A DNA stretch of 41,577 bases from Bacillota bacterium. Its GTDB lineage: Bacteria; Bacillota; Clostridia; Acetivibrionales; JAFADI01. Under the pieces are notes generated by a model. That model saw nothing but the letters and a program-made list of their open reading frames with translations. It was not told where the DNA came from and made no database searches. Position 1 is the first letter of the stretch. Each line of letters opens with the position of its first letter. Both the position numbers and the translations under genes were made by a program. Where the stretch lies: NCBI GenBank assembly GCA_023424965.1, contig JAFADI010000267.1, forward strand, positions 1-41,577, in the 5' to 3' direction. This document shows positions 763 through 36,036 of the stretch, piece after piece.

Positions 763-1087
763 ATCAGATGAGGGATCTGAAGGCTATGGTTTAGCACTCG
801 ATTGAAAATCGAAGGAATGTACTGGAATCTTTGGAGAGAATCCTCGGGCTTTTGCAAATATTTTGCGGAGGCACCGGAACTTAAGCCCTGAAGTGTGCGG
901 ATACCGGGTATGGCAAGCTTGCCCTCGTGCGTGAAGCCATGTTGAATGAGCCGGGCGGAGCCTGGAATTTCAAATGGCCCACGGACAACGGCCTGCAAGC
1001 GATAGCCTCAAGCAGCACTCCGCCGATGTTGCGGGAGGATTCTTGAAAAGGATTCAAAAGCTATTTTTGTTGAAAGGATGGATGAAA

Positions 1088-2212
1088 ATGAAGGTAAGGA
1101 TCAAAAATGACGAAAGAGGTCTGTTATTCAGGGACGGCAACTATGTAAAATGCTTAAAACCCGGGAAGCACTCACTGAATCCCTTTGTTAAATATAGTGT
1201 TATTGTAGCGGATGTTAACCGGGCCTTTGACATAGCAGGGAAAAATATCAACCTGTTTCTCGGAGATGAGGAGCTTTTAAAAGAGCTTACGGTACTGGAT
1301 GTCCAGGACTATGAAATTGCCATACATTTTGAAGACGGCAAGCTTGCGGAAGTTCTGAAATCCGGTAAGTACGCATTCTGGAACGTCCTCAAAAAGCATA
1401 GCTTTAAAGTCGTTGACATCAGAGATCCCCAGGTGAAACCCGATATTGACGCCTCCACCTACACCAACCCCAGGCTGGCAGGATTTGTGGGATACTATGA
1501 AGTGGCAAACCATGAAAAAGGCATACTCTACTACAACAATGTAATTCAGAAAACTCTGGAGCCCGGCAGGTATTTCTTCTGGAAGAGTCCTGTGCATGTG
1601 GCGGTAAAGAACGTAGATTTGCGGCAGCAGCAACTGGATATGACCGGACAGGAAATCATGACGGAGGACAAAATTACCTTGAGGCTGAATTTCGTATGCC
1701 ATTACAGGATTACAGAGCCTTTGAAGGTTGTGGAGGTAAAATCCTTCGAAGAACAGCTCTACATCGTGCTGCAACTGATCCTGAGGGAATATGTGGGGGC
1801 TTTGAAGCTGGATGATCTCCTTCTGAAAAAGCAGGAAATCGGGAGCTACGCCCTGGAAAAATTAAAGGAGAAGAGCGGCAGCTACGGTGTGGAATTCCTG
1901 TTTGCAGGTGTGAAAGACATCATATTGCCCGGGGACATAAAGGATATATTGAACACTGTGCTGATAGCCGAGAAGAAGGCACAGGCCAATGTTATTACCA
2001 GAAGGGAAGAAATCGCCTCCACAAGGAGCCTGCTGAACACTGCAAAGCTTATGGAGGAAAACCAAACGCTTTACAGGCTGAAAGAGCTTGAGTTCCTGGA
2101 AAAGATTTGTGAGAAAATCGGCAATGTTTCGCTGACCGGCGGGGGCAGCCTGCTTGAACAGCTAAATACGCTGCTGTCCAATAAGGCCGGTGACAGAAAA
2201 TGCGGAGTATGA
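1088..2212 (+). CDS. SPFH/Band-7 (stomatin/prohibitin-like) domain protein without TM anchor, with a duplicated N-terminal beta segment
   Basis: SPFH core signature ...MTGQEIMTEDKITLRLNFVCHYRITEP...; two similar N-terminal segments (KVRIKNDERGLLFRDGNYVKCLKPGKH / HEKGILYYNNVIQKTLEPGRYFFW). RBS AAAGGA 9 nt before ATG 1088 (ATG 1082 is an alternative). Confidence 0.8.
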   Translation: MKVRIKNDERGLLFRDGNYVKCLKPGKHSLNPFVKYSVIVADVNRAFDIAGKNINLFLGDEELLKELTVLDVQDYEIAIHFEDGKLAEVLKSGKYAFWNVLKKHSFKVVDIRDPQVKPDIDASTYTNPRLAGFVGYYEVANHEKGILYYNNVIQKTLEPGRYFFWKSPVHVAVKNVDLRQQQLDMTGQEIMTEDKITLRLNFVCHYRITEPLKVVEVKSFEEQLYIVLQLILREYVGALKLDDLLLKKQEIGSYALEKLKEKSGSYGVEFLFAGVKDIILPGDIKDILNTVLIAEKKAQANVITRREEIASTRSLLNTAKLMEENQTLYRLKELEFLEKICEKIGNVSLTGGGSLLEQLNTLLSNKAGDRKCGV

Positions 2213-2305: not shown

Positions 2306-3496
2306 ATGATAGAAATCAAAGGAAAGTACAATACGGCAAAGGTTTTTACCGACAATGTGGAGGACGTGGCGGTGGCCCAGATCCTGGAGCTTTGCAACCA
2401 GGAGTTCGTTAAGGACAGCAGCATAAGGATTATGCCGGATACCCATGCGGGTGCCGGCTGCACCATTGGGACCACCATGACCATTTCCGACAAGGTGGTG
2501 CCCAACCTTGTGGGTGTTGACATCGGCTGCGGCATGGAAACCATAAAGCTTAAAAACAAAGAACTGGACTTAGGCAAGCTGGATAGGGTGATTCATGAAC
2601 ATATACCGTCCGGTTTTGATACGAGAAAAAAGCAGCATTCCTATGTAGAAAAAATTGATTTTGACAAGCTGGCGTGCAAAAAGAATGTGGGCATAGACCG
2701 GGCCAGGCTGAGCGTCGGTACATTAGGCGGAGGAAATCACTTCATCGAGGTAAACAAAGACGGGGCTGGAGAGTTGTATCTTGTGGTGCATTCAGGGAGC
2801 AGGCACCTCGGCAAACAAGTTGCCGAGTTCTACCAGGCCCTTGGATACAAGGAGCTGGTAAAAAACAGTGAATATCTTTCGGAGCTCGTCGGAAGACTAA
2901 AGGCGGAAGGCCGTGAAAAGGAGATTCAAGAGGAAATCCGGAATGCAAAGCCCTTGAAGATCAACAAGCAGCTTGCCTATGTGCAGGGAAAAAGCTATGA
3001 GAATTACTTGAATGACATGAAAATCGTACAAAAATTTGCGGTGCTTAACCGCAAGGCGATGGTGGATGAGATTGTAAAGCGGATGGAAATTGATATTGCG
3101 GAGCAGTTCGCCACAATCCACAATTATATTGACCTGGACCATATGATTCTCAGAAAGGGTGCAATTTCCGCACGCAGTGGGGAGAGAGTCCTGATTCCCA
3201 TCAACATGCGGGACGGAAGCCTGATTTGTACCAGAAAGGGCAATAAGGATTGGAATTATTCTGCACCCCATGGGGCAGGCAGGTTGATGAGCAGGAGCAA
3301 GGCAAAGGAAGTTATAAGCCTGGAGGAGTTCAAAAAATCCATGGAAGGTATCTATTCAACCACCGTTAACCGGTCCACTCTGGACGAATGCGCTCTGGCC
3401 TACAAACCGATGGATGAAATCGTAAGCAACATTCAGGACACGGTAGAAATCGTTGACAGAATTAAACCGGTATATAATTTTAAGGCAGCCGAGTGA
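2306..3496 (+). CDS. rtcB: RtcB-family RNA 3'-phosphate ligase (short ~400-aa form)
   Basis: Motifs MPDTHAGAGCTIG, GGGNHFIE and APHGAGR resemble the RtcB metal/GTP-binding motifs. Confidence 0.85.
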   Translation: MIEIKGKYNTAKVFTDNVEDVAVAQILELCNQEFVKDSSIRIMPDTHAGAGCTIGTTMTISDKVVPNLVGVDIGCGMETIKLKNKELDLGKLDRVIHEHIPSGFDTRKKQHSYVEKIDFDKLACKKNVGIDRARLSVGTLGGGNHFIEVNKDGAGELYLVVHSGSRHLGKQVAEFYQALGYKELVKNSEYLSELVGRLKAEGREKEIQEEIRNAKPLKINKQLAYVQGKSYENYLNDMKIVQKFAVLNRKAMVDEIVKRMEIDIAEQFATIHNYIDLDHMILRKGAISARSGERVLIPINMRDGSLICTRKGNKDWNYSAPHGAGRLMSRSKAKEVISLEEFKKSMEGIYSTTVNRSTLDECALAYKPMDEIVSNIQDTVEIVDRIKPVYNFKAAE

Positions 3497-3820: not shown

Positions 3821-5989
3821 ATGGGAAAAATTTTGGTTTTGACGGAAAAACCCTCGGTGGCCAGGGATATTGCAAAGGTGCTGGGCTGCACCCAGAACGG
3901 CAACGGCTGCATCATGGGTTCAAAATACATCATCACCTGGGCGCTGGGACATCTGGTGACGCTGGCCGACCCTGAGGCGTACGGCAGCAAATATAAATCA
4001 TGGAATCTTGAAGACCTGCCCATGCTTCCCAGGAAAATGGAGCTGGTGGTCATCCGGGAAACGGCAAAGCAGTTCGGAGCCGTGCGGGGGCTCATGAGCC
4101 GGGACGACATCGACGAACTGGTCATCGCCACCGATGCGGGGCGAGAAGGGGAACTGGTGGCGCGCTGGATCATAGAAAAGGCGGGCTTCCGCAAGCCCAT
4201 AAAGCGCCTGTGGATTTCCTCCCAGACGGATAAGGCCATCAAGGAAGGCTTTGCAAACCTTAAGCCCGGAAGGGAATACGACAATCTTTACATGTCGGCC
4301 CAGAGCCGGGCGGAGGCGGATTGGCTGGTGGGCCTCAATGTCACAAGGGCTCTCACCTGCAAATACAACGCGCAGCTTTCGGCGGGGAGGGTCCAGACCC
4401 CCACGCTGGCAATGATTGTCGAACGGGAAAATGAGATACGAAAATTCGTGCCCAGGGATTTTTGGACCATCAGCGGCAAAGTGAACGGCTTTGACATGCA
4501 GTGGAAGGATCCGGCCAATGGGAACACAAGGATCTTCGATAAAGCAAAGGCGGAGGAAATTGTGGCAAAAGTAGCCAACCAGGAGGGCAGGATCGCAGAA
4601 GTCGGCAAAGATGCGAAGAAAGAACTGCCGCCCCTTGCCTATGACCTGACGGAGCTCCAGCGGGATGCCAACAGGCGGTACGGCTATTCCGCCAAAAAGA
4701 CCCTGTCCCTCATGCAGAAGCTGTATGAAGCACACAAGCTGGTGACCTATCCCAGGACCGATTCCAGGTATATCTCGGAGGATATCGTTCCCACCCTGCC
4801 GGAACGGTTGAAGAGCATTGCAGTGGGACCCTATACCGCCATGGCCCGGGAGGTTTTGAAGAACAGGCTCAATGTGACCAAGCGGTTTGTGGACGGCAGC
4901 AAGGTTTCTGACCATCATGCCATCATACCCACCGAGCAATTTGTGAACCTTGGCTCCTTGAGCCAGGAGGAGCGCAATATCTACGACCTGATTGTAAAGC
5001 GGTTTATCGCGGTTTTGAATCCCCCCTTCGAATATGAGCAAACTACCGTAAGGGTGGAGGTCAGGGGAGAACAGTTTTACGCAAAAGGAAAGATCGTGAA
5101 AGCCCTGGGTTGGAAGTCGGTGTACGGCAGTTCCGACAAGCTGGAGGAGGACGAGGAGGAAGAGGATCAGGACCAGTCCCTTCCGGAGGTTACGAAAGGA
5201 CAGACGGTGAAATTGCTTTCCGCCAGGCCTGTCAACGGCAAGACGAAGCCACCGGCCAGGTACAACGAAGCCACGCTGCTTTCGGCCATGGAGCATCCGG
5301 GAAAGTTTGTAGAGGACAAAGCCTTGAGAGAGGCGCTGGAAAGCACCAGCGGCCTTGGCACGCCGGCCACCAGGGCGGATATCATCGAAAAGCTCTTTGA
5401 TACCTTCTATGTGGAAAGACGGGGAAAAGAAATCTTTCCTACCTCAAAGGGAATTCAATTGATCGGGCTGGTGCCTTCCGACCTGAAGTCACCGGAGCTG
5501 ACGGCAAAATGGGAACAAAACCTGCAGTTGATCAGCAAAGGGAAGGCCAATGCAAACAAGTTTGTGGAAGAGATGAAGAATTACGCCTCGAAGCTGGTTT
5601 CCAATGTCATTGCAAGCACGGAGGGCTACCGGCATGACAACATGACCAGGGAAAAGTGCCCCGAGTGCGGAAAATACCTTCTGGACGTCAACGGAAAGAA
5701 GGGGAAAATGCTCGTGTGCCCCGACAGGGACTGCGGCTACAGGAAGGGAATTTCCCAGGTATCCAATGCCAGGTGCCCGGAGTGCCACAAAAAGATGGAG
5801 ATACGGGGAGAAGGGGAAAACAAGACTTTTTATTGCACCTGCGGGTACAGGGAAAAGTTGGAGGCCTTCAAGAAGAGAAAGGGAGAACATGTCGACAAGA
5901 GGGAAGTCAGCAAGTTCCTGAAGCAGCAGGATGAGGGTGAAAGCATCAACTCCGCGCTGGCAGAAGCCCTGGCCAAGTGGAAGAAATAG
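3821..5989 (+). CDS. topB: Type IA DNA topoisomerase III with three C-terminal C4 zinc ribbons
   Basis: N-terminus MGKILVLTEKPSVARDIAKVLG (the EKPS Toprim motif typical of topo III rather than topo I), 722 aa; C-terminal CPECG...CPDRDCG, CPECH...CTCG. Confidence 0.85.
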   Translation: MGKILVLTEKPSVARDIAKVLGCTQNGNGCIMGSKYIITWALGHLVTLADPEAYGSKYKSWNLEDLPMLPRKMELVVIRETAKQFGAVRGLMSRDDIDELVIATDAGREGELVARWIIEKAGFRKPIKRLWISSQTDKAIKEGFANLKPGREYDNLYMSAQSRAEADWLVGLNVTRALTCKYNAQLSAGRVQTPTLAMIVERENEIRKFVPRDFWTISGKVNGFDMQWKDPANGNTRIFDKAKAEEIVAKVANQEGRIAEVGKDAKKELPPLAYDLTELQRDANRRYGYSAKKTLSLMQKLYEAHKLVTYPRTDSRYISEDIVPTLPERLKSIAVGPYTAMAREVLKNRLNVTKRFVDGSKVSDHHAIIPTEQFVNLGSLSQEERNIYDLIVKRFIAVLNPPFEYEQTTVRVEVRGEQFYAKGKIVKALGWKSVYGSSDKLEEDEEEEDQDQSLPEVTKGQTVKLLSARPVNGKTKPPARYNEATLLSAMEHPGKFVEDKALREALESTSGLGTPATRADIIEKLFDTFYVERRGKEIFPTSKGIQLIGLVPSDLKSPELTAKWEQNLQLISKGKANANKFVEEMKNYASKLVSNVIASTEGYRHDNMTREKCPECGKYLLDVNGKKGKMLVCPDRDCGYRKGISQVSNARCPECHKKMEIRGEGENKTFYCTCGYREKLEAFKKRKGEHVDKREVSKFLKQQDEGESINSALAEALAKWKK

Positions 5990-6059
5990 CTTTTTCAGAC
6001 TCCGTATGAAAATAAGCGTATGTAAGCTTGAGTTCAAAAAAGGAGGCTTGAAAAGCGTG

Positions 6060-6461
6060 ATGAAAAAACTTATTATTGCCGTCATTTCCGTTGTTTTATT
6101 GATTTCCGCCGGAGTGTATGTTTTCTACGTCCTGCCCAATAACCGGGAGCTGGAGGCCGTCAGAAAAATGCCCATTGAAGATGTGGACCTGGGAAAGGTG
6201 AAGGACGGGACTTACAACGGAGCCTATGTTTACGGCTCACACACCTATGAGGTACAGGTGAGGGTGGGGGACCACAGGATTGAGAAAATTGACGTGGTCA
6301 GCAACCGGGACACCTCCCATGCCAAAAAAGCGGAAGGGGTCATTGATCGGGTCCTGGAGAAGCAGGCCGTGAATGTGGATGTGGTATCCGGCGCCACCAC
6401 CACCAGCAAAGCCTTGCTTAAAGCGATCGAAAATGCAGTGAAATCCGGTCTGGAGGAATAG
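6060..6461 (+). CDS. FMN-binding domain protein (FMN_bind family), N-terminal membrane anchor
   Basis: MKKLIIAVISVVLLISAG... TM segment; C-terminal VVSGATTTSKALLKAIENA typical of FMN_bind. RBS AGGAGG precedes the start; a GTG at 6057 is an alternative start. Confidence 0.75.
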   Translation: MKKLIIAVISVVLLISAGVYVFYVLPNNRELEAVRKMPIEDVDLGKVKDGTYNGAYVYGSHTYEVQVRVGDHRIEKIDVVSNRDTSHAKKAEGVIDRVLEKQAVNVDVVSGATTTSKALLKAIENAVKSGLEE

Positions 6462-6494: not shown

Positions 6495-6977
6495 TCAGGT
6501 TTTTGTGTTGCCGGCGGCTGATCTGACGAGTGTATAGGTATGCCAGCTGTTTGCAAAATGACCCGCTGCCAGGAAAACCACCGCCGCACCGAGCCAGAGG
6601 GATTCTCCCAGCATGGCCGCAAAGGCGAAGGCCAGGACAGGCAGGACTGCCATGGGGATGGGGATAAACTTGAAAGGCTCAAAAAGCAGCGAAAATCTGC
6701 GCCCTTTCACAACATACCTTGTCCATAAGCTGTAATAGGCCAGTATGCAGAGCACCATCAACACAAACGGAGGGTTGACGGTCAAAGGGCTGAAGCTGTC
6801 CTTTGAGATGCAAAGCAACAGGAGGCAGCCAATTTGTCCCGTTCTTTCCAGCAGGGTGAAGATAAACCCCGAATCCTTTAAACCTTCCGGAACCTTTTCG
6901 GGTGGAAACAGCCAAACAAGCAAATTTGGAATAAGTATTGCTAGTGCGATGAGAAACCCTGCTACCGAAAAACCCAT
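6495..6977 (-). CDS. Hypothetical polytopic membrane protein (160 aa), last gene of the minus-strand 4-gene module
   Basis: Internal ATG at 6977 with strong RBS AAGGAGAAGG; 4-5 hydrophobic segments. The longer 213-aa ORF in the track lacks an RBS. Confidence 0.6.
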   Translation of the reverse strand: MGFSVAGFLIALAILIPNLLVWLFPPEKVPEGLKDSGFIFTLLERTGQIGCLLLLCISKDSFSPLTVNPPFVLMVLCILAYYSLWTRYVVKGRRFSLLFEPFKFIPIPMAVLPVLAFAFAAMLGESLWLGAAVVFLAAGHFANSWHTYTLVRSAAGNTKT

Positions 6978-7014
6978 AAACCTTCTCCTTTGTAAAACAC
7001 CCCGGAAGATGCCT

Positions 7015-7842
7015 TTAAAATTTTCCGCCCCCTCCGCCATGGCTTCTTCCGCTGCTGCCATGATGAGTGCTGCTTCCACCGGAGCCGGAGTCATTTTGAA
7101 TCCTGACGCGGGTGGTTGTTTCCCTGACATAGTCATCGCTGGAAGCTGTCAGTTTAAAGGAACCTTCTTCTTCGTAGGTCCGGTTGCTGATTGTAATTTT
7201 GCCTTTGCTTGACAGGGAAGCGAGGATGGTGGCAATAAGCGCTACAACTGTTGCCGTTATATAGACGGCGGGAAGTTGCACCTGCCTTGCGACCCTTTCC
7301 AGATACGTGCCGGGAGCGGCGGATTCCTGCCCTCCGGGCACAGTTTCCGGTGCTTCGGTGTCTATTCTGTGCTGTCCTTCCGGTATCCCCTTATCGGCAT
7401 AAAATCTCACTTTGCTGATAAATTCCTTACAGCTGTTGTAATAATCGGCTTTTGACAGAAAACCGCCAACGGCACTCACCATCTCCGATATTCTGGCATC
7501 GGTGAAAATATCAATGGCTTTGCCCGTTGTGGAGATCCACAATTCCCTTTCCTTCATGTTGATCAGCAGCAGCAGGCCGGACTTGTCGCTTCCCGCACCA
7601 AAACCGTTGTAGTCGTAATAGTCGTCGGCAAAGTCTCTGGAAGACTTGCCTTCCGTATCCTCCGTGGTGACAATGACCACATCCAGGCCATAATCCTTGA
7701 CAACTCCGTCAATCAGACTCTGAACTTCTTTCAGTTCCTCTTCCTTCAGAAGGCCCAGGGAATCCTTGACTTTCTCAGTTTCAGCCGCCAGCACCTGCAT
7801 TTGTCCTACAAGCAGAACAAACATCAAAGCCAGCAGCAGCAC
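7015..7842 (-). CDS. TPM-domain (YgcG-like) protein: signal peptide, TPM domain, TM helix, Gly/Ser-rich tail
   Basis: Signal-like LLLALMFVLLVGQMQVLAAE; TPM-like core; C-terminal ...GSGGSSTHHGSSGRSHGGGGGKF. GTG start at 7842 with AGGAAG RBS, 11 nt after the upstream gene's stop. Confidence 0.75.
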   Translation of the reverse strand: MLLLALMFVLLVGQMQVLAAETEKVKDSLGLLKEEELKEVQSLIDGVVKDYGLDVVIVTTEDTEGKSSRDFADDYYDYNGFGAGSDKSGLLLLINMKERELWISTTGKAIDIFTDARISEMVSAVGGFLSKADYYNSCKEFISKVRFYADKGIPEGQHRIDTEAPETVPGGQESAAPGTYLERVARQVQLPAVYITATVVALIATILASLSSKGKITISNRTYEEEGSFKLTASSDDYVRETTTRVRIQNDSGSGGSSTHHGSSGRSHGGGGGKF

Positions 7843-7852
7843 ACTTATCTTC

Positions 7853-8884
7853 CTAGACAAACAGAGCACCCCCAAACACGCCCAATATCCATACTGCAGC
7901 AAATACCAGACCGGCAAAGGCCAGCTGCTTTAAGAAGCTGGTGGGCGTATCTCCCACCACCTTGCCGGTTTGTCCGTTGATAATGAATATATGCGATTTT
8001 TCCTTGTACTTGTTGACCAATAAATAAATGGGCAGCAGTGAATAGCTCTCTTCGGTATCCCACAGGTCTGTATGCTTTGACATGACAGTATAGGAGGAAT
8101 AGCCCGTCACCGTTCCCCTCAGCCTGTCCTCCGCATATTTTGCGACTCTTTCCCTCATCACCGATGCCGCTTCATTACCTTCCACATCATATTTTTCCGC
8201 CATGAAGCCGGACAGGTACTGCATGGAAAAATCCGTAAGGTCATTGTAGTTATAGGGCTCAATCATGTGCATGAAGGTATCGTCCAGCTTTTTGGAGGCA
8301 TCCACGGGTACCTGCTGATAGTTTACCATGCCCCTGCGTGCGACCCTGTAATATTTTGTCTGGGTATACCTGTATTGTCCCTGTGTCCAGTGGCTGACCC
8401 TGGTGGCTTCCCCGTCGATAGCGCCGTCAACTCTACAGTCAAATAACCAGAAGGGTGCGTAGATACCTGTTATCTTTTCAATTTCTTCCCTGGTTTTGAA
8501 CTCGCCGGGAGCAAACAAGCGCCTTTTTATCCATTTTCGATAAATGTCCTCCGCCTGGAGCTTTGTCAGGCGGAAGGGAATCAGCTTTTTGGGCTTAAAC
8601 CTTCCGGAAAACCTTGTTTTGATGATGGTAGGGTTTTTGCAATACAAACAGGTGGTGGCGGAAACCGTATCGTCGGTAATCAATTCCGCCCCGCAGCTGG
8701 TGCACCGGTAGGAATCCAATTCCGGCATATCCTGTTCCGGCGGTTCCTCTTCCCGGTAAACGGCGTCAAGATCCGCTTTCGTAAATTCACTGAAGCAATA
8801 GTGGCATTTCCACTTCTGGGAAGGCGGGTCGAATTCCAGACCGGCTTTGCAGTTCAGACATTTATATTCCTTTACCGAACTCAT
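7853..8884 (-). CDS. Double zinc-ribbon protein with central domain of unknown function and C-terminal TM anchor
   Basis: CLNCKAG...CHYCFSEF and CTSCGAE...CLYCKNP zinc ribbons; C-terminal FLKQLAFAGLVFAAVWILGVFGGALFV. RBS AGGAGA 6 nt before the ATG. Confidence 0.7.
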   Translation of the reverse strand: MSSVKEYKCLNCKAGLEFDPPSQKWKCHYCFSEFTKADLDAVYREEEPPEQDMPELDSYRCTSCGAELITDDTVSATTCLYCKNPTIIKTRFSGRFKPKKLIPFRLTKLQAEDIYRKWIKRRLFAPGEFKTREEIEKITGIYAPFWLFDCRVDGAIDGEATRVSHWTQGQYRYTQTKYYRVARRGMVNYQQVPVDASKKLDDTFMHMIEPYNYNDLTDFSMQYLSGFMAEKYDVEGNEAASVMRERVAKYAEDRLRGTVTGYSSYTVMSKHTDLWDTEESYSLLPIYLLVNKYKEKSHIFIINGQTGKVVGDTPTSFLKQLAFAGLVFAAVWILGVFGGALFV

Positions 8885-8919
8885 TCACATTCTCCTTTTT
8901 CCCTTGTTCCGAAATAGAG

Positions 8920-10278
8920 TCAGCCAGGCCTCTTGCTTCCGCAGTTGGAGCAGAAAAGGCCTTCCGTCTCGTTGCCGCAGGTGCAGACCCATTTTTTCCT
9001 GTCGGGCCGCCGTTTGCCGCAGTCAGGACAAAAGGAGCCACCGGACGTCTTTCTTCCGCAGGAACATTCCCACGGGTCTCCCGAAGGTTCCGGTTCCCTC
9101 ACGGGCTTTTTGCTGCCGCAGCTTGAACAGAAGGCGGCATTTTCAGGCATTTTGTTCCCGCAGGAACAGGTCCAGCCTCCCTGCGCAGCGGGAGGGTTGG
9201 AAGGCTGCTGCTGTGGCTGCTGGCCCGGCATTGCTCCTGCAACTCCGGCGGCGTTCATCCCCATGGCCATCCCTGCAAAGCCCATCATCGCCCCGCCCGG
9301 ATTTGAGCCTGCGGCTTCGAGGCCTGACGCCAGGCCCGCGGTCATACGGGCGGCCCTTGCATTGGGGTCCAGCAGGATGGAGTCGTTGGCATATTTCTCA
9401 AGCAGCTTGTCGGTGTTTTCATCAAAGGAGATCCCGGCAATTCCCACACTGTGGATAAAAAAGCCCCTCTTTGAAAGCCACTCCTTGTCAAGGACTTCTG
9501 CCATAAACTGCCCCAGTTCCATGGTCCTCATGGGGATGTCGGAGACCAGGACATTGCTGGCGGACAGGCTGGCCAGCGCAGTGGTATAAGCCATCAGGAA
9601 TTCATTAATATATTGTTCCGCCATGTCACCGGTGCTGAGGTTGGCTTTGCCGGTTTTGCTGCAGACTTCATTGTAGAATAACAACGGATCGGCTACTTTT
9701 ATTGAATAAGTGCCGAAGGAGGTTATTTTGCAGGGTACCACCCTTCCCGGAACCAGGACCCTGTCGGTATAAGGCACGGGATTTTTTGTTCCGAAGCGTA
9801 TATTGGGAAGCTCCTGCTTGTTGATGTACACTACTTTCTGTTTAACGGGTGTCGTACCACCGAACTTGAAGCGCTCCCAGGAATCCTTCAGGGTGTTCGC
9901 CAGGCCTCCCGGCCGGTATATTCCGTTTCTTCCGGTGTTATCATACTCCTGGACATAGCTTCCCTCCGGTGACTGAAAAAAGATGGAAGGCGACCGGGAA
10001 TTGTCAACCTGGTAATAGCCCGGCTCATCGGTGGCGGAGATAATCCTGCCTCCGTCTACCAGCAGCATGAAGACATTCTCGGGAACATGGATGATTGAAC
10101 CGTTGGAAATGACATCCTCCGTTCCTCTTCTATTTGAGCTCCGGGAATCTTTTTTCCTGACACAGACTCCGTAAGACGCGATGATGGTGTTGTCAATTTG
10201 TGCAGGCTCGATGGTTTCAAGCCATTGGTCCGCAAGTGTTCCTCCGATTGCTCCAACTGCCGCTTTAAAAATACCCAT
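8920..10278 (-). CDS. SPFH/Band-7-like (Band_7_1-type) protein with Gly/Ala/Gln-rich linker and three C-terminal C4 zinc ribbons
   Basis: N-terminus MGIFKAAVGAIGGTLADQWLE... typical of the SPFH-like 'virion core protein' family; tail CSCGNK..CSSCG, CSCGRK..CPDCG, CTCGNE..CSNCG. RBS AGGAAAGGAAGAGGGG upstream. Confidence 0.8.
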   Translation of the reverse strand: MGIFKAAVGAIGGTLADQWLETIEPAQIDNTIIASYGVCVRKKDSRSSNRRGTEDVISNGSIIHVPENVFMLLVDGGRIISATDEPGYYQVDNSRSPSIFFQSPEGSYVQEYDNTGRNGIYRPGGLANTLKDSWERFKFGGTTPVKQKVVYINKQELPNIRFGTKNPVPYTDRVLVPGRVVPCKITSFGTYSIKVADPLLFYNEVCSKTGKANLSTGDMAEQYINEFLMAYTTALASLSASNVLVSDIPMRTMELGQFMAEVLDKEWLSKRGFFIHSVGIAGISFDENTDKLLEKYANDSILLDPNARAARMTAGLASGLEAAGSNPGGAMMGFAGMAMGMNAAGVAGAMPGQQPQQQPSNPPAAQGGWTCSCGNKMPENAAFCSSCGSKKPVREPEPSGDPWECSCGRKTSGGSFCPDCGKRRPDRKKWVCTCGNETEGLFCSNCGSKRPG

Positions 10279-10535
10279 TTTCCCCTCTTCCTTTCCTGAA
10301 CGGTGTAATTTCTTCCTATTCTTATGTGTCTTGCATCAATAACTACTATAGATTATTCCTGTATACTACAAATTATATATGAACATGCGGAGGTTGTAAA
10401 AATGTTTTTGCAGGCTTTTGCCCGCGCTCCTGTCAAGAGTAGGGACAGATGCGAGCTTCCAATGTTTGTATTGAACATTTTTTTATTTACCGTTACTATG
10501 GTAAGTATACAGAGACCGGCAAAGGAGAAGAAGCC

Positions 10536-11024
10536 ATGAATGCACAGGAGAAAGTTTTTGAAAGGCTGAAGGCATTGGACATCAAATACGAGGTCACAAA
10601 CCATCCGGCCGTTTTTACCATTGAAGAGATGGACAACCTGAATATAACACTTCAGGGGGATGTGTGCAAAAACCTGTTTTTGAGGGACGAGAAAGGGAAG
10701 CGGCACTTCCTCGTGGTTCTGGGAAAAGACAAAAAAGCCGATTTGAAAAGCCTCCAGAGCCAGCTGGGCTGCAGCAGATTGGGCTTTGCATCGGAAGAAA
10801 GGCTTTCCAGATACCTGCAGCTTAAAAAAGGGGAAGTGACTCCCATGGGTATCATCAACGACACCGATGCCCTGGTGGAGGTGGTGCTGGACAGGGATCT
10901 GACAGGAAAAAACAGGCTTGGAGTCCATCCCAATGACAATACCGCCACCGTATGGATTGCTTTTGAGGCGTTGAAAAAAGTCATCGAAGGAAACGGCAAC
11001 AAAATCCACTTCGTTGCAATCTGA
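10536..11024 (+). CDS. YbaK/ProX-like aminoacyl-tRNA deacylase domain protein
   Basis: ~160-aa protein with YbaK-like pattern (KNLFLRDEKGKRHFLVV..., GIINDTDA..VVLD...HPNDNTAT). RBS AAGGAGAAG 5 nt before ATG 10536. Confidence 0.7.
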   Translation: MNAQEKVFERLKALDIKYEVTNHPAVFTIEEMDNLNITLQGDVCKNLFLRDEKGKRHFLVVLGKDKKADLKSLQSQLGCSRLGFASEERLSRYLQLKKGEVTPMGIINDTDALVEVVLDRDLTGKNRLGVHPNDNTATVWIAFEALKKVIEGNGNKIHFVAI

Positions 11025-23865: not shown

Positions 23866-24033
23866 TTACTTAAATCTGTTTTTATATATTTTTTTCATGA
23901 TACTGCCAAGATACAGTGTGAAGGTGCAAGATAAAACAATTCCGACAATGAAATGCAGGATTTGGCCGGGGGATAAACTTGAAAAAGTGAGTATGAAAGC
24001 TGCAATTGCTATGATAGACAGCAGCAGAAACAT
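23866..24033 (-). CDS. Possible 55-aa two-TM small membrane protein (MFLLLSIIAIAAFILTFSSLSPGQILHFIVGIVLSCTFTLYLGSIMKKIYKNRFK)
   Basis: Hydrophobic two-helix ORF in an AT-rich spacer; no convincing RBS. Confidence 0.2.
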   Translation of the reverse strand: MFLLLSIIAIAAFILTFSSLSPGQILHFIVGIVLSCTFTLYLGSIMKKIYKNRFK

Positions 24034-24248
24034 TATAAAGGATACTGAAACGGCAGAGACTACCTGCTTGTTTCTCTTTTCCAGGCTTTCAATGCTGGTG
24101 AAGGATTCGGGCCTTTTAATCGGTATATTCCTTTCTCCATAGGAAGCAGCTCGCCATTTGGCCGACAAACTTCCAGCCAAACTGTTCGTAGGTGGATCTG
24201 TAATCTTTTTTCGGGAATGCCTGCATGTCATAAATATATCTGCATTTT

Positions 24249-24316
24249 CAAAATTTCAAGGACAAAATATAATGTGAAGTTCATTCTTCCAAACTGAAGC
24301 TCCGGGTATTTATAAT
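24249..24316 (+). repeat. Boundary-repeat family copy A: CAAAATT..N..TATAATGTGAAGTTC-N13-GAAGCTCCGGGTATTTATAAT
   Basis: Aligned to copies B (32623-32691) and C (36101-36175). Lies ~160 nt upstream of the LuxR/STAND regulator gene. Confidence 0.6.
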
Positions 24317-24473
24317 TCCTGTGCTGCTGAACGAGTGAGTAGTTATGTCTATTCTATTCACATGTTTGACTTGGGAGTTTTCACAATTGAGAGCAAGCAG
24401 CGGTTTGTGAAAAATACTTTACTCGATCTTTGATTTATGAGACTATTAAAATAGGAGTATTTTTATTGAAAAA

Positions 24474-27230
24474 ATGAAATGGCATGATAAGGAGCGGAGC
24501 CCGTTGAATAATAGCCTGAATGGCAAAGGTAATATTAAAATGCTGTCTGATAAATTCAACCAAAGTTCAATTGGAAGACAAATCGAAGTCCCTTTTTATA
24601 ATGCTCCATATACGAAATTTTTAGTTCCTGATTCCGCCACGCTGAAGGTGAATAGAGGAATATTCCATTTTGAGCTAAATGAAGCAGTGAAAAAGAAACT
24701 TATTATTATTACAGCTCCGGCGGGCTATGGGAAAAGTACGGCAGTGAGCAGTTGGATTTTACAGAATCAGGCCAGCCGAAGCTTTATATGGATTACTCTG
24801 GATAAGGATGACCGTGAAGAAAGCAATTTCTGGCATAATATCATATTCTCAATAAATCAAGATGAAAATATAATTTCCTATGATAAATTACTGTTGTTAT
24901 CGATAGAACAAAGTATAAACTTTTTAATTAATTATTTTTCTGAAATTTCTTCAGAATGCTTTATCATATTGGATGACTTTCACTATATCGATTGTGAACA
25001 AATCAATAGATCCTTCGGGTATTTTTTAGCCTATATGCCTAAGAACCTTCATTGCATTGTTATAAGCAGATCTTTTCCGTCCATATCATTATCAAAAATG
25101 ACGGTTGACGAGGATGTAACAACGTTTGATATTCGGGACCTTCAATTTTCCCATGAGGAAGCACGTACGTTCCTCAATGAAATAATGGATTTGAAACTAT
25201 CCGATGAGGATATAAAAACGTTGGAAACGAAGACCGAAGGTTGGATAGCCGCCCTGAAGGTTGCTGCCTTGTCCCTTAGGAATTGCTCCGATAAAAATGC
25301 CTTTATAAACAGCTTTGACAGCAGCAATAAAAAGATGTTTCAATATATTTTTGAAGAAGTGGTCAATTTTCAGGAAGCGGTTGTCAGAGAATTTTTGTTG
25401 AAAACCTCCATTTTAAAAAATCTGAATAAATCCATTTGCGACGCATTAACCGGTTGCAATAAATCCCAGGAGATATTGGAAATGCTTGAGGCGAACAATC
25501 TTTTCATCATCGGCCTGGACGAGAGAAAAGAAAATTACCGTTATGATCAACTATTGTCAGATATTCTTGTTAAACTGTTATTCAAGGAATATCCGGATCA
25601 GGTCCATGAAATATATTTGGCTGCCAGCCGATGGTGTGAGGACCATGGGTATCTTCGAGATGCTTTAGAATATTCCCTTGGCTCGGAAGATTCCCAAAAT
25701 ACATTGCTGTTGTTGGAAAAGTATTTTTCTACAAAGCATCCGGATATTTTAGGACCTAAAAAAATCTGTGATTGTTTTGGAGCCATACCCTGCGAAATGT
25801 ATAATAAGATGCCTGATTTATGTATTCGATACGCCTTAGCCCTGGCGGAAACAGGCCAGGTAAGCCTGGATGAGAAAGAATTGGCCGAGCGGGGAATAAA
25901 CTTGGATAGTGATGTTTGGGGAGGCTATAAAGGCCGGGTGAGTCAATTACGTGCCTATACCGCATTAAAATACGAAAATATCGTTGATGTTATCAGATAT
26001 TCCGAACAGGCAATGAACCAACTTCCCGGTGATATTTCGGGTGTTACCCCATGCCTTGTACTGGGATATATCTACAGGTCTCTTGGAGATATAGAAAAGG
26101 CTGAGTTCTATTTTGGAAATGCCGTACTTTTAAGCAAAGAAGTGAGCGATACCCGGCCTGGTGAGATTTTTGAGCCGCTCATTTTGAGCAACTTTTATAT
26201 GGCTTCGATTCAATACTTAAAAGGGGAATCGGATAATTTCATTACCCTTTTAAATCAAATACTGACCGAAAATATCACACATAAAAATTGTATGTATTTC
26301 TGCCTTGCTACCGCGTATTACGACGAAGGCGATTTCCGGCAGGCATATCCAAATGTAATGAAGGGTTTGGAATTGTGTAGTACATACGAGGACATCTTCT
26401 ATGAAAGAGTAAAAGGTTTTGTATTACTTGCAAGAATTTTGTTCCATACCGGTAAAAGTGCTGAAGCCATCAGTGTGATGAATGAGATAGACAGCTTGAT
26501 GAAGCCGGATTCAGGCAACCTGTTCATCCTGCTTGAATTGCCCAGGATTGTGAATCTTTTGGTTTCATTAGGGTTGATGGAGCGCGCAGAGGCCTATATT
26601 CATAAATTCAACAGCATTGATTGCAAGGAAATCAGGTTCACTATCTGTGAAGCTCAGGCAGAACTTTCCTTAGGAAAGAAAATGTATAAGGAAGCAGTCG
26701 ATATTCTGGAATTGATGATCTCAAACATGAATTTGGAGGTTTACCCCAAAAAAAGAATTGATTTGCTTGTATTAAGATCCATTGCACACAAGGCTTATAA
26801 CGAGAATGAGGAAGCATTGGCGTGTTTGCGAGAAGCACTGAAAACCAAGGGTGCAGAAAGGTATGCGAGGGCTTTTATTGATCGGGGCAAACCAATGCTT
26901 GATTTATTGGAAAAGTTCATCCTTCAGGCAGAAAAGAAGAAGGATATCCATTTGCTGAATATTGCGGAAAACCTGGTGAAAAGGCTTGAAAATAAAAATA
27001 GGCCCGCGTTGGCGGTACAGCATAGTGAGAGATTTGAACAGCTAAGCGAGAGAGAGCTGGAAGTACTCAGACTGTTGGCCGAGGGCTTAAGCTATGAAGA
27101 AATTGGAAAAGGACTTTACATTTCTCTAAGTACCGTAAAAAAACATACAGGTAACATCTATCACAAGCTGCAAGCGGATAACAAAATACAGGCAGTCAAT
27201 ATTGCCAAAGCAAATAAGCTGGTTGATTAA
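24474..27230 (+). CDS. LuxR/MalT-type STAND-NTPase transcriptional regulator (AAA-like NTPase + TPR-like helical repeats + C-terminal LuxR HTH), 918 aa
   Basis: Walker A ITAPAGYGKST; C-terminal LSERELEVLRLLAEGLSYEEIGKGLYISLSTVKKHTGNIYHKL (LuxR-type HTH). Start uncertain (ATG 24474; in-frame TTG 24504 after AAGGAG; ATG 24540). AT-rich gene. Confidence 0.85.
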   Translation: MKWHDKERSPLNNSLNGKGNIKMLSDKFNQSSIGRQIEVPFYNAPYTKFLVPDSATLKVNRGIFHFELNEAVKKKLIIITAPAGYGKSTAVSSWILQNQASRSFIWITLDKDDREESNFWHNIIFSINQDENIISYDKLLLLSIEQSINFLINYFSEISSECFIILDDFHYIDCEQINRSFGYFLAYMPKNLHCIVISRSFPSISLSKMTVDEDVTTFDIRDLQFSHEEARTFLNEIMDLKLSDEDIKTLETKTEGWIAALKVAALSLRNCSDKNAFINSFDSSNKKMFQYIFEEVVNFQEAVVREFLLKTSILKNLNKSICDALTGCNKSQEILEMLEANNLFIIGLDERKENYRYDQLLSDILVKLLFKEYPDQVHEIYLAASRWCEDHGYLRDALEYSLGSEDSQNTLLLLEKYFSTKHPDILGPKKICDCFGAIPCEMYNKMPDLCIRYALALAETGQVSLDEKELAERGINLDSDVWGGYKGRVSQLRAYTALKYENIVDVIRYSEQAMNQLPGDISGVTPCLVLGYIYRSLGDIEKAEFYFGNAVLLSKEVSDTRPGEIFEPLILSNFYMASIQYLKGESDNFITLLNQILTENITHKNCMYFCLATAYYDEGDFRQAYPNVMKGLELCSTYEDIFYERVKGFVLLARILFHTGKSAEAISVMNEIDSLMKPDSGNLFILLELPRIVNLLVSLGLMERAEAYIHKFNSIDCKEIRFTICEAQAELSLGKKMYKEAVDILELMISNMNLEVYPKKRIDLLVLRSIAHKAYNENEEALACLREALKTKGAERYARAFIDRGKPMLDLLEKFILQAEKKKDIHLLNIAENLVKRLENKNRPALAVQHSERFEQLSERELEVLRLLAEGLSYEEIGKGLYISLSTVKKHTGNIYHKLQADNKIQAVNIAKANKLVD

Positions 27231-32000: not shown

Positions 32001-32164
32001 CCTATTTTTGTTTTCTTTTTTTAGGATATGGTCTTATCTTTAAATCTTCAATTTTAGGTTCTGCTTCTCCTGTTTCCAGTCTGGAAAATTTTCTTTGTGT
32101 CGTATTAAAAATTTTTGCAAGTGCTTCCTGCGTTAGCCTAGGTTCTATTTCTTCCCGTAGTCAT
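32001..32164 (-). pseudogene. Frameshifted XRE-family (Cro/C1-type) HTH regulator remnant
   Basis: Minus strand: ATG at 32164 gives MTTGRNRT*; the -1 frame continues ...EEIEPRLTQEALAKIFNTTQRKFSRLETGEAEPKIEDLKI..., a canonical XRE helix-turn-helix, with no in-frame start. Confidence 0.45.
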
Positions 32165-32277
32165 TTTAGACGATTGTCGTCTAAAAATCAATAGACGATG
32201 ATCGCCTGAGGTATGATAGCAATGGGTGATCATATGGAGCGGTATGAAATTATTCGGGGACGATGAGGTGAAGCAGG

Positions 32278-32451
32278 ATGGAAAATAAAATTTGTAAGAA
32301 TTGCAGGCATTTCAGACAACATTATATTAAGTTCGGGAGAAGCTACCGGGAAATCACGTATGGGCATTGTGTGTATCCAAGGTTAAAAAAGAGAGAATCC
32401 GACACTTTGGCATGCCAACACTATAAAGAACGCCACAGGGAGTCTCCATAA
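32278..32451 (+). CDS. Unannotated 57-aa basic Cys/His-rich protein MENKICKNCRHFRQHYIKFGRSYREITYGHCVYPRLKKRESDTLACQHYKERHRESP (putative zinc ribbon)
   Basis: ORF below the 60-aa track cutoff; GAGGTG RBS 7 nt before the ATG; CxxC ... HC ... C spacing. Confidence 0.45.
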   Translation: MENKICKNCRHFRQHYIKFGRSYREITYGHCVYPRLKKRESDTLACQHYKERHRESP

Positions 32452-32622
32452 AGCCCTCCGCTGGAATCAACGCCGTCATCAGCCAATGGATGTTCTTGAC
32501 CTACTCGCTTCCACAGCGGTGTTCTTTGTGTATGGTCGGAGAAAAACAGGTAAAGAAGAAAGTAAAATGCATCGATGGATAGGGTATCTGCCGGTGTCTT
32601 TTAGTCAAATTTTTGTTCAATA

Positions 32623-32691
32623 TCAAAATTTTGAGGATAAATTATAATGCGAAGTTCATTTTAACAAATTCAAGTTCCGAGCATTTATATT
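32623..32691 (+). repeat. Boundary-repeat family copy B: TCAAAATT..N..TATAATGCGAAGTTC-N14-AAGTTCCGAGCATTTATATT
   Basis: Aligned to copies A and C. Sits between the degraded XRE/Cys-ORF region and the 3' end of the TetR gene. Confidence 0.6.
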
Positions 32692-32756
32692 TTGTACAGC
32701 AAAAGAGTCCGATTAAATAATTTTAGTCGCAAATTGCTGGAAGAAAACAGATATGA

Positions 32757-33356
32757 TCAATTGCTTATAACAATCTGGTTGTACAAATCGATACCCTTTT
32801 CGGTTAGGTTAAAATACAGGATACTCCAGACGATATTTAAAAGTTCATCATGTTGTTCAGTCGCATCCGATGAAATTTGTTGTATCCATGACATCATCAA
32901 CAACACGATTCCATTTGCCAAATATTTTCGTAGTTTTTCATTTGGAGATACCCTGAATATTTCTTTCTTTTCAAAGTTTTCAATGATTTGGCTAAAGTGC
33001 ATAATAAGCATTTTTCTTACCTTTGATTGAAACTCCGATATTTCATGATAGTTTTTTCGCAATTCAATCATATTACTGAAATAGAAATAGTATTTCTTTT
33101 GAAATAGTAGCATCGTTTCCAACTGCTCATTAAAATCCATTATACTAACATCAGATTTTAAATCTAAAGATTTAAAATCTTCATATTGAAGTTCAACAAC
33201 AGCGCGGATCAAATCGGACTTTTTTTTATAGTGATAGGTAATATTCCCTACGCTCTTATTGGTTGCATCGGCAATATCGCGCATAGAGACCGCGACATAC
33301 CCATTTTGGTTAAACAATTCAATTGCTTTTTGCAAAATTATCTTTTTAGTCGTCAT
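32757..33356 (-). CDS. TetR/AcrR-family transcriptional repressor
   Basis: N-terminal HTH ILQKAIELFNQNGYVAVSMRDIADATNKSVGNITYHY; RBS GGAGAAA before ATG 33356 (track ORF is N-terminally over-extended). Confidence 0.85.
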   Translation of the reverse strand: MTTKKIILQKAIELFNQNGYVAVSMRDIADATNKSVGNITYHYKKKSDLIRAVVELQYEDFKSLDLKSDVSIMDFNEQLETMLLFQKKYYFYFSNMIELRKNYHEISEFQSKVRKMLIMHFSQIIENFEKKEIFRVSPNEKLRKYLANGIVLLMMSWIQQISSDATEQHDELLNIVWSILYFNLTEKGIDLYNQIVISN

Positions 33357-33409
33357 GATATTTCTCCAAAAATAAATTTTCCATATAGAGCATATCACAC
33401 TTGATTATT

Positions 33410-33457
33410 TAGTACAAGTGTACTAAAATAAAAATACAAACTAGTACGAACGTACTA
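33410..33457. promoter_or_regulatory. Two perfect 16-bp palindromic operators TAGTACAAGTGTACTA (33410-33425) and TAGTACGAACGTACTA (33442-33457) in the TetR/hydrolase divergent promoter region
   Basis: Perfect inverted repeats read directly. The second abuts the TATAAT -10 of the hydrolase operon. Confidence 0.6.
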
Positions 33458-33482
33458 ATTATAATCTGAGGAGGTCACGATA

Positions 33483-34550
33483 ATGAAACCGGATCAACAG
33501 GAAATTAATGCAACAATTCGGACCCTTCCCATTGACAGGGCTATTCCAAATGGTCTTGACGTAAATGATTTTGTTGTACTCATGCAGGAATTTGAAAAGG
33601 GAGGTGACTACGCTGATATTTGTGAAAATTTAGGTGACAATTGGCGGGCATTGGCTGATAAGGCTATAAAGCAGGAACATTTCATGACTGGAAGAACTTT
33701 TTACCTTAATGCAGTTGCAGCATACAGAGTCGGACAATACACGATTATTCCGGATAATGACAAAAAACTGGGCATGTATAGAAAGCTGATTGACTGTTAT
33801 CGTGAGGCTGCAAAGCTGTACAATCCGCAAATTGAAAGAATTGAAGTGCCTTACAAGGGTGGCAGGATGGTCGGGTGGTTAAGAATGCCTCCGAATACGG
33901 AGGGAAAAGTTCCGGTAGTCATTTCTATCGGCGGTGCTGACGGATGGCGCGAAGAACATCACAACTACAGCAGCTATTATGCAGAAAGAGGACTCGCGTA
34001 TCTTATGATAGACGGGCCGGGTCAGGGTGAAACAAGGCTGTTTAACAAGATGTATATGGAACTGAATAACGAAGAAGCTTTGAATGAAATTGTTGAATAT
34101 GTATCAATGGATAACAGATTTAGTAAAATAGGTATGATCGGATACAGTTTTGGGGGGTATTTGGTTGCAAGGACAGCAGCCGTCAGTAAGAAACTGGATG
34201 CTTGTGTCATCAATGGAGGATCCTATACTCCAAAAGAGATAATTAGTTTTATTCCTCATTTCAGCAGGGTCTTTTCCGCGCTGTCAAACAAGAAAGATAA
34301 TGAATTGGAGGAGTTCATTGACAATATGACGATGGAAGGGCATGCACAAAATATTACTTGTTCACTTTTAGTAAACCATGGGATACCTGATCCCTTGTTC
34401 AGAGCTGAAGGAGTTGAAAGAATATACAAGGAAGCCGGATCAACTGATAAAATATTAAAACTCTGGAAAGACGGCAATCATTGTGTCACAAACCATGCAA
34501 CCGAAACAATAACCCTGGTTACGGATTTCTTTATGGATAGATTGAAATAG
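33483..34550 (+). CDS. Alpha/beta hydrolase (FrsA/DHPON-hydrolase-like family), paralog 1
   Basis: IDGPGQGE motif, nucleophile elbow GYSFGG; RBS GAGGAGG. Confidence 0.8.
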   Translation: MKPDQQEINATIRTLPIDRAIPNGLDVNDFVVLMQEFEKGGDYADICENLGDNWRALADKAIKQEHFMTGRTFYLNAVAAYRVGQYTIIPDNDKKLGMYRKLIDCYREAAKLYNPQIERIEVPYKGGRMVGWLRMPPNTEGKVPVVISIGGADGWREEHHNYSSYYAERGLAYLMIDGPGQGETRLFNKMYMELNNEEALNEIVEYVSMDNRFSKIGMIGYSFGGYLVARTAAVSKKLDACVINGGSYTPKEIISFIPHFSRVFSALSNKKDNELEEFIDNMTMEGHAQNITCSLLVNHGIPDPLFRAEGVERIYKEAGSTDKILKLWKDGNHCVTNHATETITLVTDFFMDRLK

Positions 34551-34582
34551 TATGTGTATATCTGACTTGTGGAGGGAGATCA

Positions 34583-35698: not shown

Positions 35699-36036
35699 TT
35701 TCGCATGAATTGAAGAATGCATAAAAAAGCGATATGTTTATTTGTGATATTTCAATATTAATCCTGATTATGAAGGTAGAAAAATGCCCAATCCAAATGT
35801 ATTGGTTGAACTCGGTTATGCAGCAAAAACAATAGGATGGGAAAAATAACATGTACCTCAATATAATTTCGATATCGAAAATGAAAAACAAAGTGTTGCA
35901 AATGGATTAGCTGAAGCAATTAAACTAATGTATAGGAGGGGCCTTCTATTTAATCCATTAAAAGATTATATGAAAGGAAAAATTGATTATTGTATATTAG
36001 GTATCCTAAAACAAATTTACTGCATGCACGAACCAT

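Follow-up and report, generated by a model that had tools for sequence, protein, structure and literature searches.

A widespread PspA-free variant of the SamIGH (YdjIGH) genes in Firmicutes

Introduction

The closest described system to the locus analyzed here is the pspA-ydjGHI operon of Bacillus subtilis, whose products YdjG, YdjH and YdjI have been renamed SamG, SamH and SamI. The domain architecture of YdjGHI was described by Ravi et al. 2024 (PMC11237479), and the interactions, localisation and phenotypes of the YdjIGH proteins in B. subtilis have been published (PMC8581546; bioRxiv 10.64898/2026.02.06.704340). YdjG contacts YdjH and YdjH contacts YdjI in two-hybrid assays, membrane foci of YdjI and PspA need YdjG/H, YdjI binds PspA and is required for PspA foci, and SamI restrains SamGH signalling (PMC8581546; bioRxiv 10.64898/2026.02.06.704340). 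In B. subtilis the SamGHI phenotypes are PspA-independent, and the samI phenotype does not require PspA (bioRxiv 10.64898/2026.02.06.704340).

Gene content and organization

The window (the whole 41.5-kb stretch of DNA analyzed) contains four minus-strand open reading frames, designated A to D, located where an earlier note had placed them. An independent gene caller returned proteins of 452, 343, 281 and 160 aa for A, B, C and D, respectively, on identical metagenome contigs. The spacers reported in the earlier note between A and B (8885-8919, 35 nt) and between C and D (6978-7014, 37 nt) are right, while the 10-nt spacer between B and C (7843-7852) is probably wrong, since relatives share a conserved TTG or ATG start codon lying across the end of the B reading frame and overlapping its stop codon. 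In the window this start lies at 7860 (TTGTCTAG), producing an 8-nt overlap with B; a Shine-Dalgarno sequence (GGGGG/GGAGG) precedes it within the last codons of B, and a conserved basic n-region (M-S/F-R/K-K) follows it. The alternative start of C, a GTG at 7842, is less likely than the TTG. Gene A begins with an ATG that has a good ribosome binding site.

Flanking genes lie on the plus strand, and the minus-strand block thus needs its own promoter. A consensus scan identified a sigma-70-type promoter-like site at 10372..10400 on the minus strand (TTTACA-17-TATAAT, 11/12, a match to consensus only), ~94 nt before gene A begins. In appearance this site is of the sigma-70 and not of the sigma-W type, which is a difference from the B. 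subtilis operon. A riboswitch or leader 5' of A was looked for and rejected, as no part of the window matched Rfam. Internal terminators were considered and rejected, as six terminator-like matches were found against 7.0 expected from shuffled sequence, and these lay inside coding sequence. The neighbouring genes are of a housekeeping type, encoding topoisomerase III, RtcB, a YbaK-like editing domain and a hydrolase.

Predicted proteins

Reference sequences for BLASTP were the three genes following PspA_IM30 on a contig of B. velezensis, a member of the B. subtilis group carrying the pspA-ydjGHI operon. Gene A (8920..10278, minus strand) encodes a soluble SPFH protein of 452 aa that resembles SamI/YdjI and represents a long subtype. 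Pfam assigned it to Band_7_1 (PF13421, E=4.8e-17), with an additional match to Zn_Ribbon_1. The domains proposed in the earlier note (a cytosolic-type Band_7_1 protein with a linker and three ribbons) all hold: topology prediction yielded no hydrophobic or transmembrane (TM) segment, a low-complexity linker rich in G/A/M/Q occupies residues ~305-365, and the C-terminus (~366-452) consists of three tandem zinc ribbons of the CxC..CxxC type (W-x-CxCG..FCxxCG). The combination of a Band_7_1 domain, no anchor, a linker and a C-terminal ribbon is that of YdjI, with three ribbons in place of one. BLASTP against B. velezensis YdjI gave 26% identity (E=8e-15) across the SPFH half, linker and ribbon. 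The PF13421 match in A begins at residue 136, and the alignment of the first 135 residues to the model is poor. A is ~120 aa longer than YdjI, carries its three CxC..CxxC ribbons where YdjI has a single CPNC..CPNC ribbon, and differs in its N-terminal signature (MGIFKAAVGAIGGTLADQW in A vs MGLFSKQFANVVEW in YdjI). Given the 26% identity, the poorly aligned N-terminal residues and the difference in ribbon number, the partners of A could differ from those of YdjI.

Gene B (7853..8884, minus strand) encodes a tail-anchored, SamG/YdjG-like protein of 343 aa with full-length homology to B. velezensis YdjG (BLASTP, E=9e-76). Sequence and topology prediction confirmed the previously proposed layout, with two ribbons at the N-terminus, a domain in the middle and a TM helix at the C-terminus. 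The two N-terminal C4 zinc ribbons (CxxC..CxxC) are invariant, at C9/C12/C27/C30 and C61/C64/C79/C82; the protein further contains two modules of a helix plus a long beta-hairpin (YpeB/PepSY-like) and an NGQTGK motif; and the TM helix spans residues 325-343. This is the YdjG arrangement, in which two N-terminal ribbons and a YpeB-related domain are combined with one TM helix at the C-terminus. No Pfam domain matched B, and a Foldseek search of the B model against the PDB returned nothing significant (best E>=0.07, TM about 0.1). Searches by sequence for solved structures of A, B and C yielded a weak TPM match and otherwise nothing but zinc ribbons of a generic kind. Matches of B to beta-pore toxins and secretins stem only from the long hairpins, and a pore-forming role was rejected. 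The YdjG family is very large, comprising 6322 clusters, with 58-80% identity among the best 120 matches; these come from Clostridium, Acetivibrio, Epulopiscium and a Paenibacillaceae MAG, among others.

Database names for B in source annotations, DNA helicase PriA and RNA polymerase subunit RpoP, would make it a DNA or transcription factor, and its zinc ribbons do match RpoP/TFIIE/L37ae. The NCBIfam RpoP match is weak (30 bits vs a cutoff of 84) and covers only residues 6-30, matches of the PriA/RpoP type span only the 25-40-residue ribbons, and B has no helicase or polymerase domain, its remainder being the YpeB-like domain and TM anchor. A role of this kind is hardly credible.

Gene C (7015..7860, minus strand) encodes a SamH/YdjH-like bitopic membrane protein of 281 aa, in which Pfam identified TPM_phosphatase (PF04536, E=4.2e-24). 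C is predicted to begin with an N-terminal signal/anchor helix, to hold its TPM domain outside the cytoplasm and to cross the membrane again through a TM helix at residues 198-216; its cytoplasmic tail is Gly/Ser-rich towards the end, in keeping with the earlier description of a secreted or anchored TPM protein with a Gly/Ser tail. The order of TPM domain, TM helix and low-complexity tail is that of YdjH, to which C is 23% identical over its full length (BLASTP against B. velezensis, E=4e-15).

By sequence comparison, A, B and C are thus homologues of YdjI, YdjG and YdjH, respectively. The earlier statements that none of the four genes has an assigned function and that the triad is uncharacterised are accordingly out of date for these three. 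These homologies provide names and testable partners for three genes that many Clostridia and Bacilli genomes list as 'PriA helicase', as 'RpoP' or as hypothetical.

Conservation of gene order

A linkage census was performed across 80 species-level genomes, using a scan with a 13-sequence alignment. The B-C (G-H) pair was adjacent in 76 of the 80 genomes and the SPFH gene A in 44, with the SPFH gene upstream (A-B-C, I-G-H) in 32/80 and downstream (B-C-A, G-H-I) in 10/80. Genomes with the I-G-H or G-H-only subtype include Clostridium thermarum (CP040924), Halalkalibacterium halodurans and Blautia wexlerae. The triad of SPFH, zinc-ribbon-TM and TPM genes therefore withstood the neighbourhood check on which its interpretation as a module depended, and the grouping of A, B and C is far beyond chance; the same is not so for D. 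About 40% of the sampled loci contained B-C without any adjacent SPFH gene, suggesting that A may be an accessory and not an obligatory partner. Clustering of the neighbours of these B-C-only loci yielded no recurrent third gene, with no family other than PspA present in more than three loci.

Gene D (6495..6977, minus strand) encodes a membrane protein of 160 aa with five helices, as expected from its earlier description as a small polytopic membrane protein, and an ICMT-like fold. It is co-directional with C and 37 nt downstream of it, and is probably co-transcribed here. In a single four-gene unit, D would be an ICMT-like membrane methyltransferase acting on a lipid or protein C-terminus, as an output or cofactor of the SPFH complex. 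This is quite improbable: D was found in none of the 80 related loci and is missing from close relatives whose B is 71-75% identical, its homologues (in Paenibacillus, Clostridium and a MAG) sit in unrelated contexts, and no Pfam ICMT/PEMT match was obtained even at E<=10; D lacks a sequence match to the model of that family with its C-terminal cofactor-binding motif. Of the four-gene module proposed in the earlier note, the linkage of A, B and C stands and the inclusion of D does not; because it is absent from all related loci and its homologues occur in unrelated contexts, D is a lineage-specific passenger and no conserved module member.

An infection-response role had also been suggested, in which the SPFH and zinc-ribbon proteins would sense infection and the membrane proteins would act as effectors of an anti-phage or abortive-infection module. 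The Bacillus sigma-W regulon, including pspA-ydjGHI, does respond to phage among other stresses according to the literature. None of A, B, C or D matched a PADLOC-DB v2 model at E<=0.01, however, and relatives of B were absent from IMG/VR viral contigs. Furthermore, the housekeeping neighbours and the very large, conserved family are unlike patchy defence islands. A defence system was rejected on the basis of the PADLOC and viral contig results and is very improbable.

Proposed function and relation to PspA

Genes A, B and C probably represent a form of the Firmicutes SamI-SamG-SamH membrane-stress module that does not depend on PspA. Their homology, architecture, predicted topology and conserved gene linkage were observed directly in this analysis. 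In general terms, the earlier view of an SPFH scaffold or stress module associated with the envelope is right. By analogy, the module likely functions as a membrane sensor/anchor (G and H) that recruits, and is restrained by, a sub-membrane SPFH oligomer. B and C, which would be translated in a coupled fashion from overlapping reading frames, may form a membrane-embedded receptor or sensor, with the tail-anchored B exposing its zinc ribbons and its YpeB-like domain to the cytoplasm, and with C placing its TPM domain outside the cell and contributing one TM helix and a cytoplasmic tail. Having no anchor of its own, A would be drawn beneath the membrane through B and C, would oligomerise there, and would both scaffold and restrain the B-C complex. 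Protein contacts, G/H-dependent foci, induction by envelope stress, an effect on membrane fluidity and the SamI brake are all inferred from the experiments in B. subtilis.

The relation to PspA was examined with an HMM built from seven PspA neighbours, which Pfam confirmed as PspA_IM30. These were the only pspA neighbours among the 80 genomes, and all seven occurred with a short, one-ribbon YdjI and formed one clade; the PspA-linked B proteins likewise formed one clade of eight inside a PspA-free family. The same Pfam architecture was found in pspA-G-H-I operons of Oceanobacillus and Paenibacillus. No pspA was detected by the HMM in the 41.5-kb window, nor within +-7 kb in 66 A-B-C, B-C or long-A loci. 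The locus could still recruit PspA just as the B. subtilis system does, if a pspA or liaH gene lies at another site in the genome; A-B-C would then mainly provide an ESCRT-III-type effector with its membrane receptor and its assembly chaperone. The binding of PspA by B. subtilis YdjI and its requirement for PspA foci favour this reading, as does the suggestion of Ravi et al. that PspA-free partner operons may recruit a distant PspA (PMC11237479). It is rather unlikely, given the lack of pspA near these loci, the confinement of PspA linkage to one clade with a distinct YdjI, and the SamGHI phenotypes of B. subtilis, which need no PspA. For the PspA-independent SamIGH module preferred here, the absence of an adjacent pspA implies that an ESCRT-III/PspA effector is either encoded elsewhere or not needed.

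The A-B-C form is a widespread, previously undescribed, PspA-free I-G-H variant of the known SamIGH system, and the studied B. subtilis operon is a minority subtype. A further, tentative possibility is that YdjG and YdjH, alone or together with a long multi-ribbon SPFH protein, form an ancient and very widespread envelope sensor/scaffold in Firmicutes that is autonomous and needs no ESCRT-III/PspA protein, and that the PspA-linked operon is a derived offshoot. If so, the core biology of the family would be a G-H membrane pair with an SPFH regulator and not PspA recruitment, and service as a PspA receptor would be a secondary function. That most family members have no linked pspA fits the 2026 finding of PspA-independent SamGHI phenotypes (bioRxiv 10.64898/2026.02.06.704340).

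Comparison with known systems

The pspA-ydjGHI operon of B. subtilis shares three kinds of protein with the locus. One is a Band_7_1 SPFH protein that is soluble and joins a low-complexity linker to zinc ribbon sequence at its C-terminus, the second a tail-anchored protein in which two zinc ribbons accompany a YpeB-like domain, and the third a membrane protein whose TPM domain is combined with a low-complexity tail; G and H are tightly adjacent. The operon differs in gene order (G-H-I, vs I-G-H here) and in having pspA directly upstream, where none is adjacent or in the window here; the downstream gene D is extra in the present locus.

TPM (YgcG) proteins are often found together with LemA, and the TPM-LemA dyads resemble C in their succession of signal/TM segment, TPM domain, TM helix and Gly-rich tail. 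The pairing with LemA to which the earlier note had pointed was unsupported, as no LemA was among the Pfam matches of the module and no LemA gene belongs to it; the invariant neighbour of this TPM subfamily is instead the YdjG-like zinc-ribbon protein.

The SPFH cages (HflK/C-FtsH, QmcA-YbbJ/NfeD, FloA/FloT) share with A the SPFH domain and an expected oligomeric sub-membrane scaffold, but are membrane-anchored and belong to Band_7, whereas A belongs to Band_7_1 and has neither a TM or hairpin anchor nor an NfeD or FtsH partner. The N-terminal anchor and NfeD partner typical of flotillin/SPFH-NfeD systems were accordingly absent, with no NfeD Pfam match in A-D. B. subtilis YdjI is found in fluid, detergent-soluble membrane, unlike flotillins (PMC8581546; bioRxiv 10.64898/2026.02.06.704340).

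The PspA-PspB-PspC system of E. coli offers a parallel in design, namely an integral-membrane sensor pair restrained by, and recruiting, a peripheral oligomer (Baur et al.). According to the literature PspB/C have no sequence homology to B/C; furthermore, no PspF-type regulator is present here, and the peripheral protein is ESCRT-III in E. coli Psp and SPFH in the present locus.

Organization of the gene block

Four consecutive open reading frames occupy positions 6495-10278 on the minus strand, with plus-strand genes on either side, namely an FMN_bind gene (5931-6461) and a YbaK-like editing-domain gene (10449-11024). They encode an SPFH protein (A, 8920-10278), a zinc-ribbon tail-anchored protein (B, 7853-8884), a TPM membrane protein (C, 7015-7860), and a small five-helix membrane protein (D, 6495-6977), all of whose domains were correctly described in the earlier note. 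The same genes were present on identical metagenome contigs (a 110-kb ENA scaffold and others), with products of 452, 343, 281, and 160 aa, respectively. A sigma-70-like promoter match (TTTACA-17-TATAAT) was located approximately 94 nt upstream of A, the first gene of the block, and terminator prediction yielded no convincing internal terminator within A-D. The spacer previously placed between B and C is probably misplaced, with C likely beginning within the end of B; its most likely predicted start is the TTG at 7860, an 8-nt overlap with the B stop (TTGTCTAG). Relatives conserve this overlap along with a GGAGG/GGGGG Shine-Dalgarno sequence inside the last codons of B and a basic S/F-R/K-K n-region of C, which suggests that B and C are translationally coupled.

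A second SPFH gene (974-2212, plus strand) lies approximately 7 kb from the block and adjoins RtcB (2306-3496). Its product carries a classical Pfam Band_7 domain (PF01145, E=1.3e-28) preceded by 176 additional N-terminal residues, and at least two SPFH paralogues of the organism therefore lie close together. The ENA version of this gene encodes 374 aa at slightly shifted coordinates, suggesting an assembly difference. Past Band_7 and RtcB, the scaffold shared with the window also contains a WYL/WCX-domain gene and a 341-aa gene without a Pfam match (L001:18712-21013); pairing of RtcB with a WYL regulator is an arrangement already known from RNA repair. GC content was 0.36-0.40 at 24001-27000 and 32001-36000 versus 0.45-0.56 in the rest of the window, and these stretches may have been horizontally acquired.

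Conservation of gene order

The B family is very large, with 6322 cluster representatives at E<=1e-3. Gene arrangements were assigned by ORF-level phmmer mapping at 80 loci from a species-representative genome scan (Clostridia, Bacilli, a Treponemataceae MAG, and Candidatus Rifleibacterium). B and C were adjacent in 76 of the 80 loci with a gap never exceeding 28 nt; the order A-B-C, as in the window, was found in 32, B-C-A in 10, and B-C alone in about 32. The proposed conserved neighbourhood thus held for the SPFH, zinc-ribbon-TM, and TPM triad and failed for D, a homologue of which was absent from all 80 loci and did not accompany the module even in close relatives with B 71-75% identical. 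Only 36 D homologues were detectable, the closest of those checked (Paenibacillus, Clostridium, a MAG) residing in unrelated neighbourhoods. The reading of all four genes as one functional unit is contradicted by these data.

Several loci depart from the common arrangements. A TM protein gene lies directly upstream of the SPFH gene in two A-B-C loci (L014:4837-5607 and L026:4850-5641); its product combines a Tim44-like domain, matched just short of the cutoff (Pfam E=1.3e-6), with a zinc ribbon at the C terminus, and may be an extra accessory partner in some lineages. Long B proteins of 634 and 430 aa (L046:5359-7263 and L083:7001-8293) have no separate TPM match downstream, possibly reflecting fusion or replacement. 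At L031:8936-11659, a second TPM-like protein of 907 aa follows a normal C.

Relationship to the YdjGHI (SamGHI) system

The B. subtilis pspA-ydjGHI operon was reached as a candidate through literature search. YdjI comprises a band-7 domain and C-terminal zinc ribbon, YdjG two zinc ribbons, a YpeB-related domain, and a TM segment, and YdjH a TPM domain with a low-complexity tail (Ravi et al. 2024, PMC11237479), architectures exactly matched by A, B, and C, respectively. A Bacillus velezensis contig, found by a search starting with an Oceanobacillus YdjI-like protein, encodes in order DUF4306, PspA_IM30 (228 aa), Zn_Ribbon_TF (341 aa), TPM (253 aa), and Band_7_1 (334 aa). By BLASTP, B was 34% identical to its YdjG over 330 residues (E = 9e-76), C 23% identical to YdjH over the full length including TM and tail (E = 4e-15), and A 26% identical to YdjI (E = 8e-15), with the C-terminal half of SPFH, the M/G/A/Q-rich linker, and the ribbon aligned. 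A-B-C is therefore a real, conserved three-gene module belonging to a known system, not the uncharacterised one proposed in the earlier note. The infection-response role suggested there, or any defence role, is likewise unsupported, as A-D had no PADLOC match and relatives of B were absent from viral contigs.

Public names for the YdjG-like B family include 'DNA helicase PriA' (NCBI) and 'RNA polymerase subunit RPC12/RpoP' (JGI), as in P0017, P0019, P0035, P0047, and others. Both identities were rejected for B as artefacts, the matches being confined to the zinc ribbons, which are the cause of this systematic misannotation. A UniRef/EukProt entry for the chytrid fungus Batrachochytrium dendrobatidis (P0331) is 75% identical to Oceanobacillus YdjI and most likely represents bacterial contamination of that assembly.

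PspA linkage and proposed mechanism

Clustering of flanking genes revealed one recurrent neighbour family only, a protein of ~225 aa encoded directly upstream of B in 7 B-C-A loci and identified by Pfam as PspA_IM30. The SPFH proteins divide cleanly into two subtypes. PspA-linked members are 318-338 aa long, have the N-terminal sequence MGLFSKQFANVVEW, and carry one CPNC..CPNC ribbon, whereas PspA-free members, including A, are 390-500 aa long, have the N-terminal sequence MGLIKAAxGAxGGTLADQW, and carry two to five CxCG..GKFCxxC ribbons, of which A has three. Neighbour-joining analysis of B proteins grouped the 8 PspA-linked sequences in a single clade that contained no others and lay within the PspA-free sequences, a result that is indicative only given midpoint rooting and a sample biased to relatives of the window. 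A pspA gene may be encoded elsewhere in the genome; however, an HMM of the PspA_IM30 neighbours detected no further copy at any locus (+-7 kb), A-B-C and B-C loci included, or in the 41.5-kb window.

In B. subtilis, YdjG interacts with YdjH, which binds both YdjI and PspA; YdjI membrane foci are abolished when either membrane protein, YdjG or YdjH, is lost, and loss of YdjI rigidifies the membrane (PMC8581546). SamI restrains SamGH signalling, a phenotype for which PspA is dispensable (bioRxiv 10.64898/2026.02.06.704340). All of A and the bulk of B are predicted to be cytoplasmic; C is predicted to have its TPM domain outside the cell and a 65-residue tail inside it. By analogy, the most economical reading is that B and C would form the same sensor/anchor pair as in B. 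subtilis, with A as its SPFH regulator-scaffold, the three operating without a dedicated PspA. The value of the module lies in annotation and in recasting the family around a G-H core. This variant of the YdjGHI system is widespread and PspA-free, with a changed gene order and multiple ribbons, and is apparently undescribed in published accounts of YdjGHI/SamGHI.
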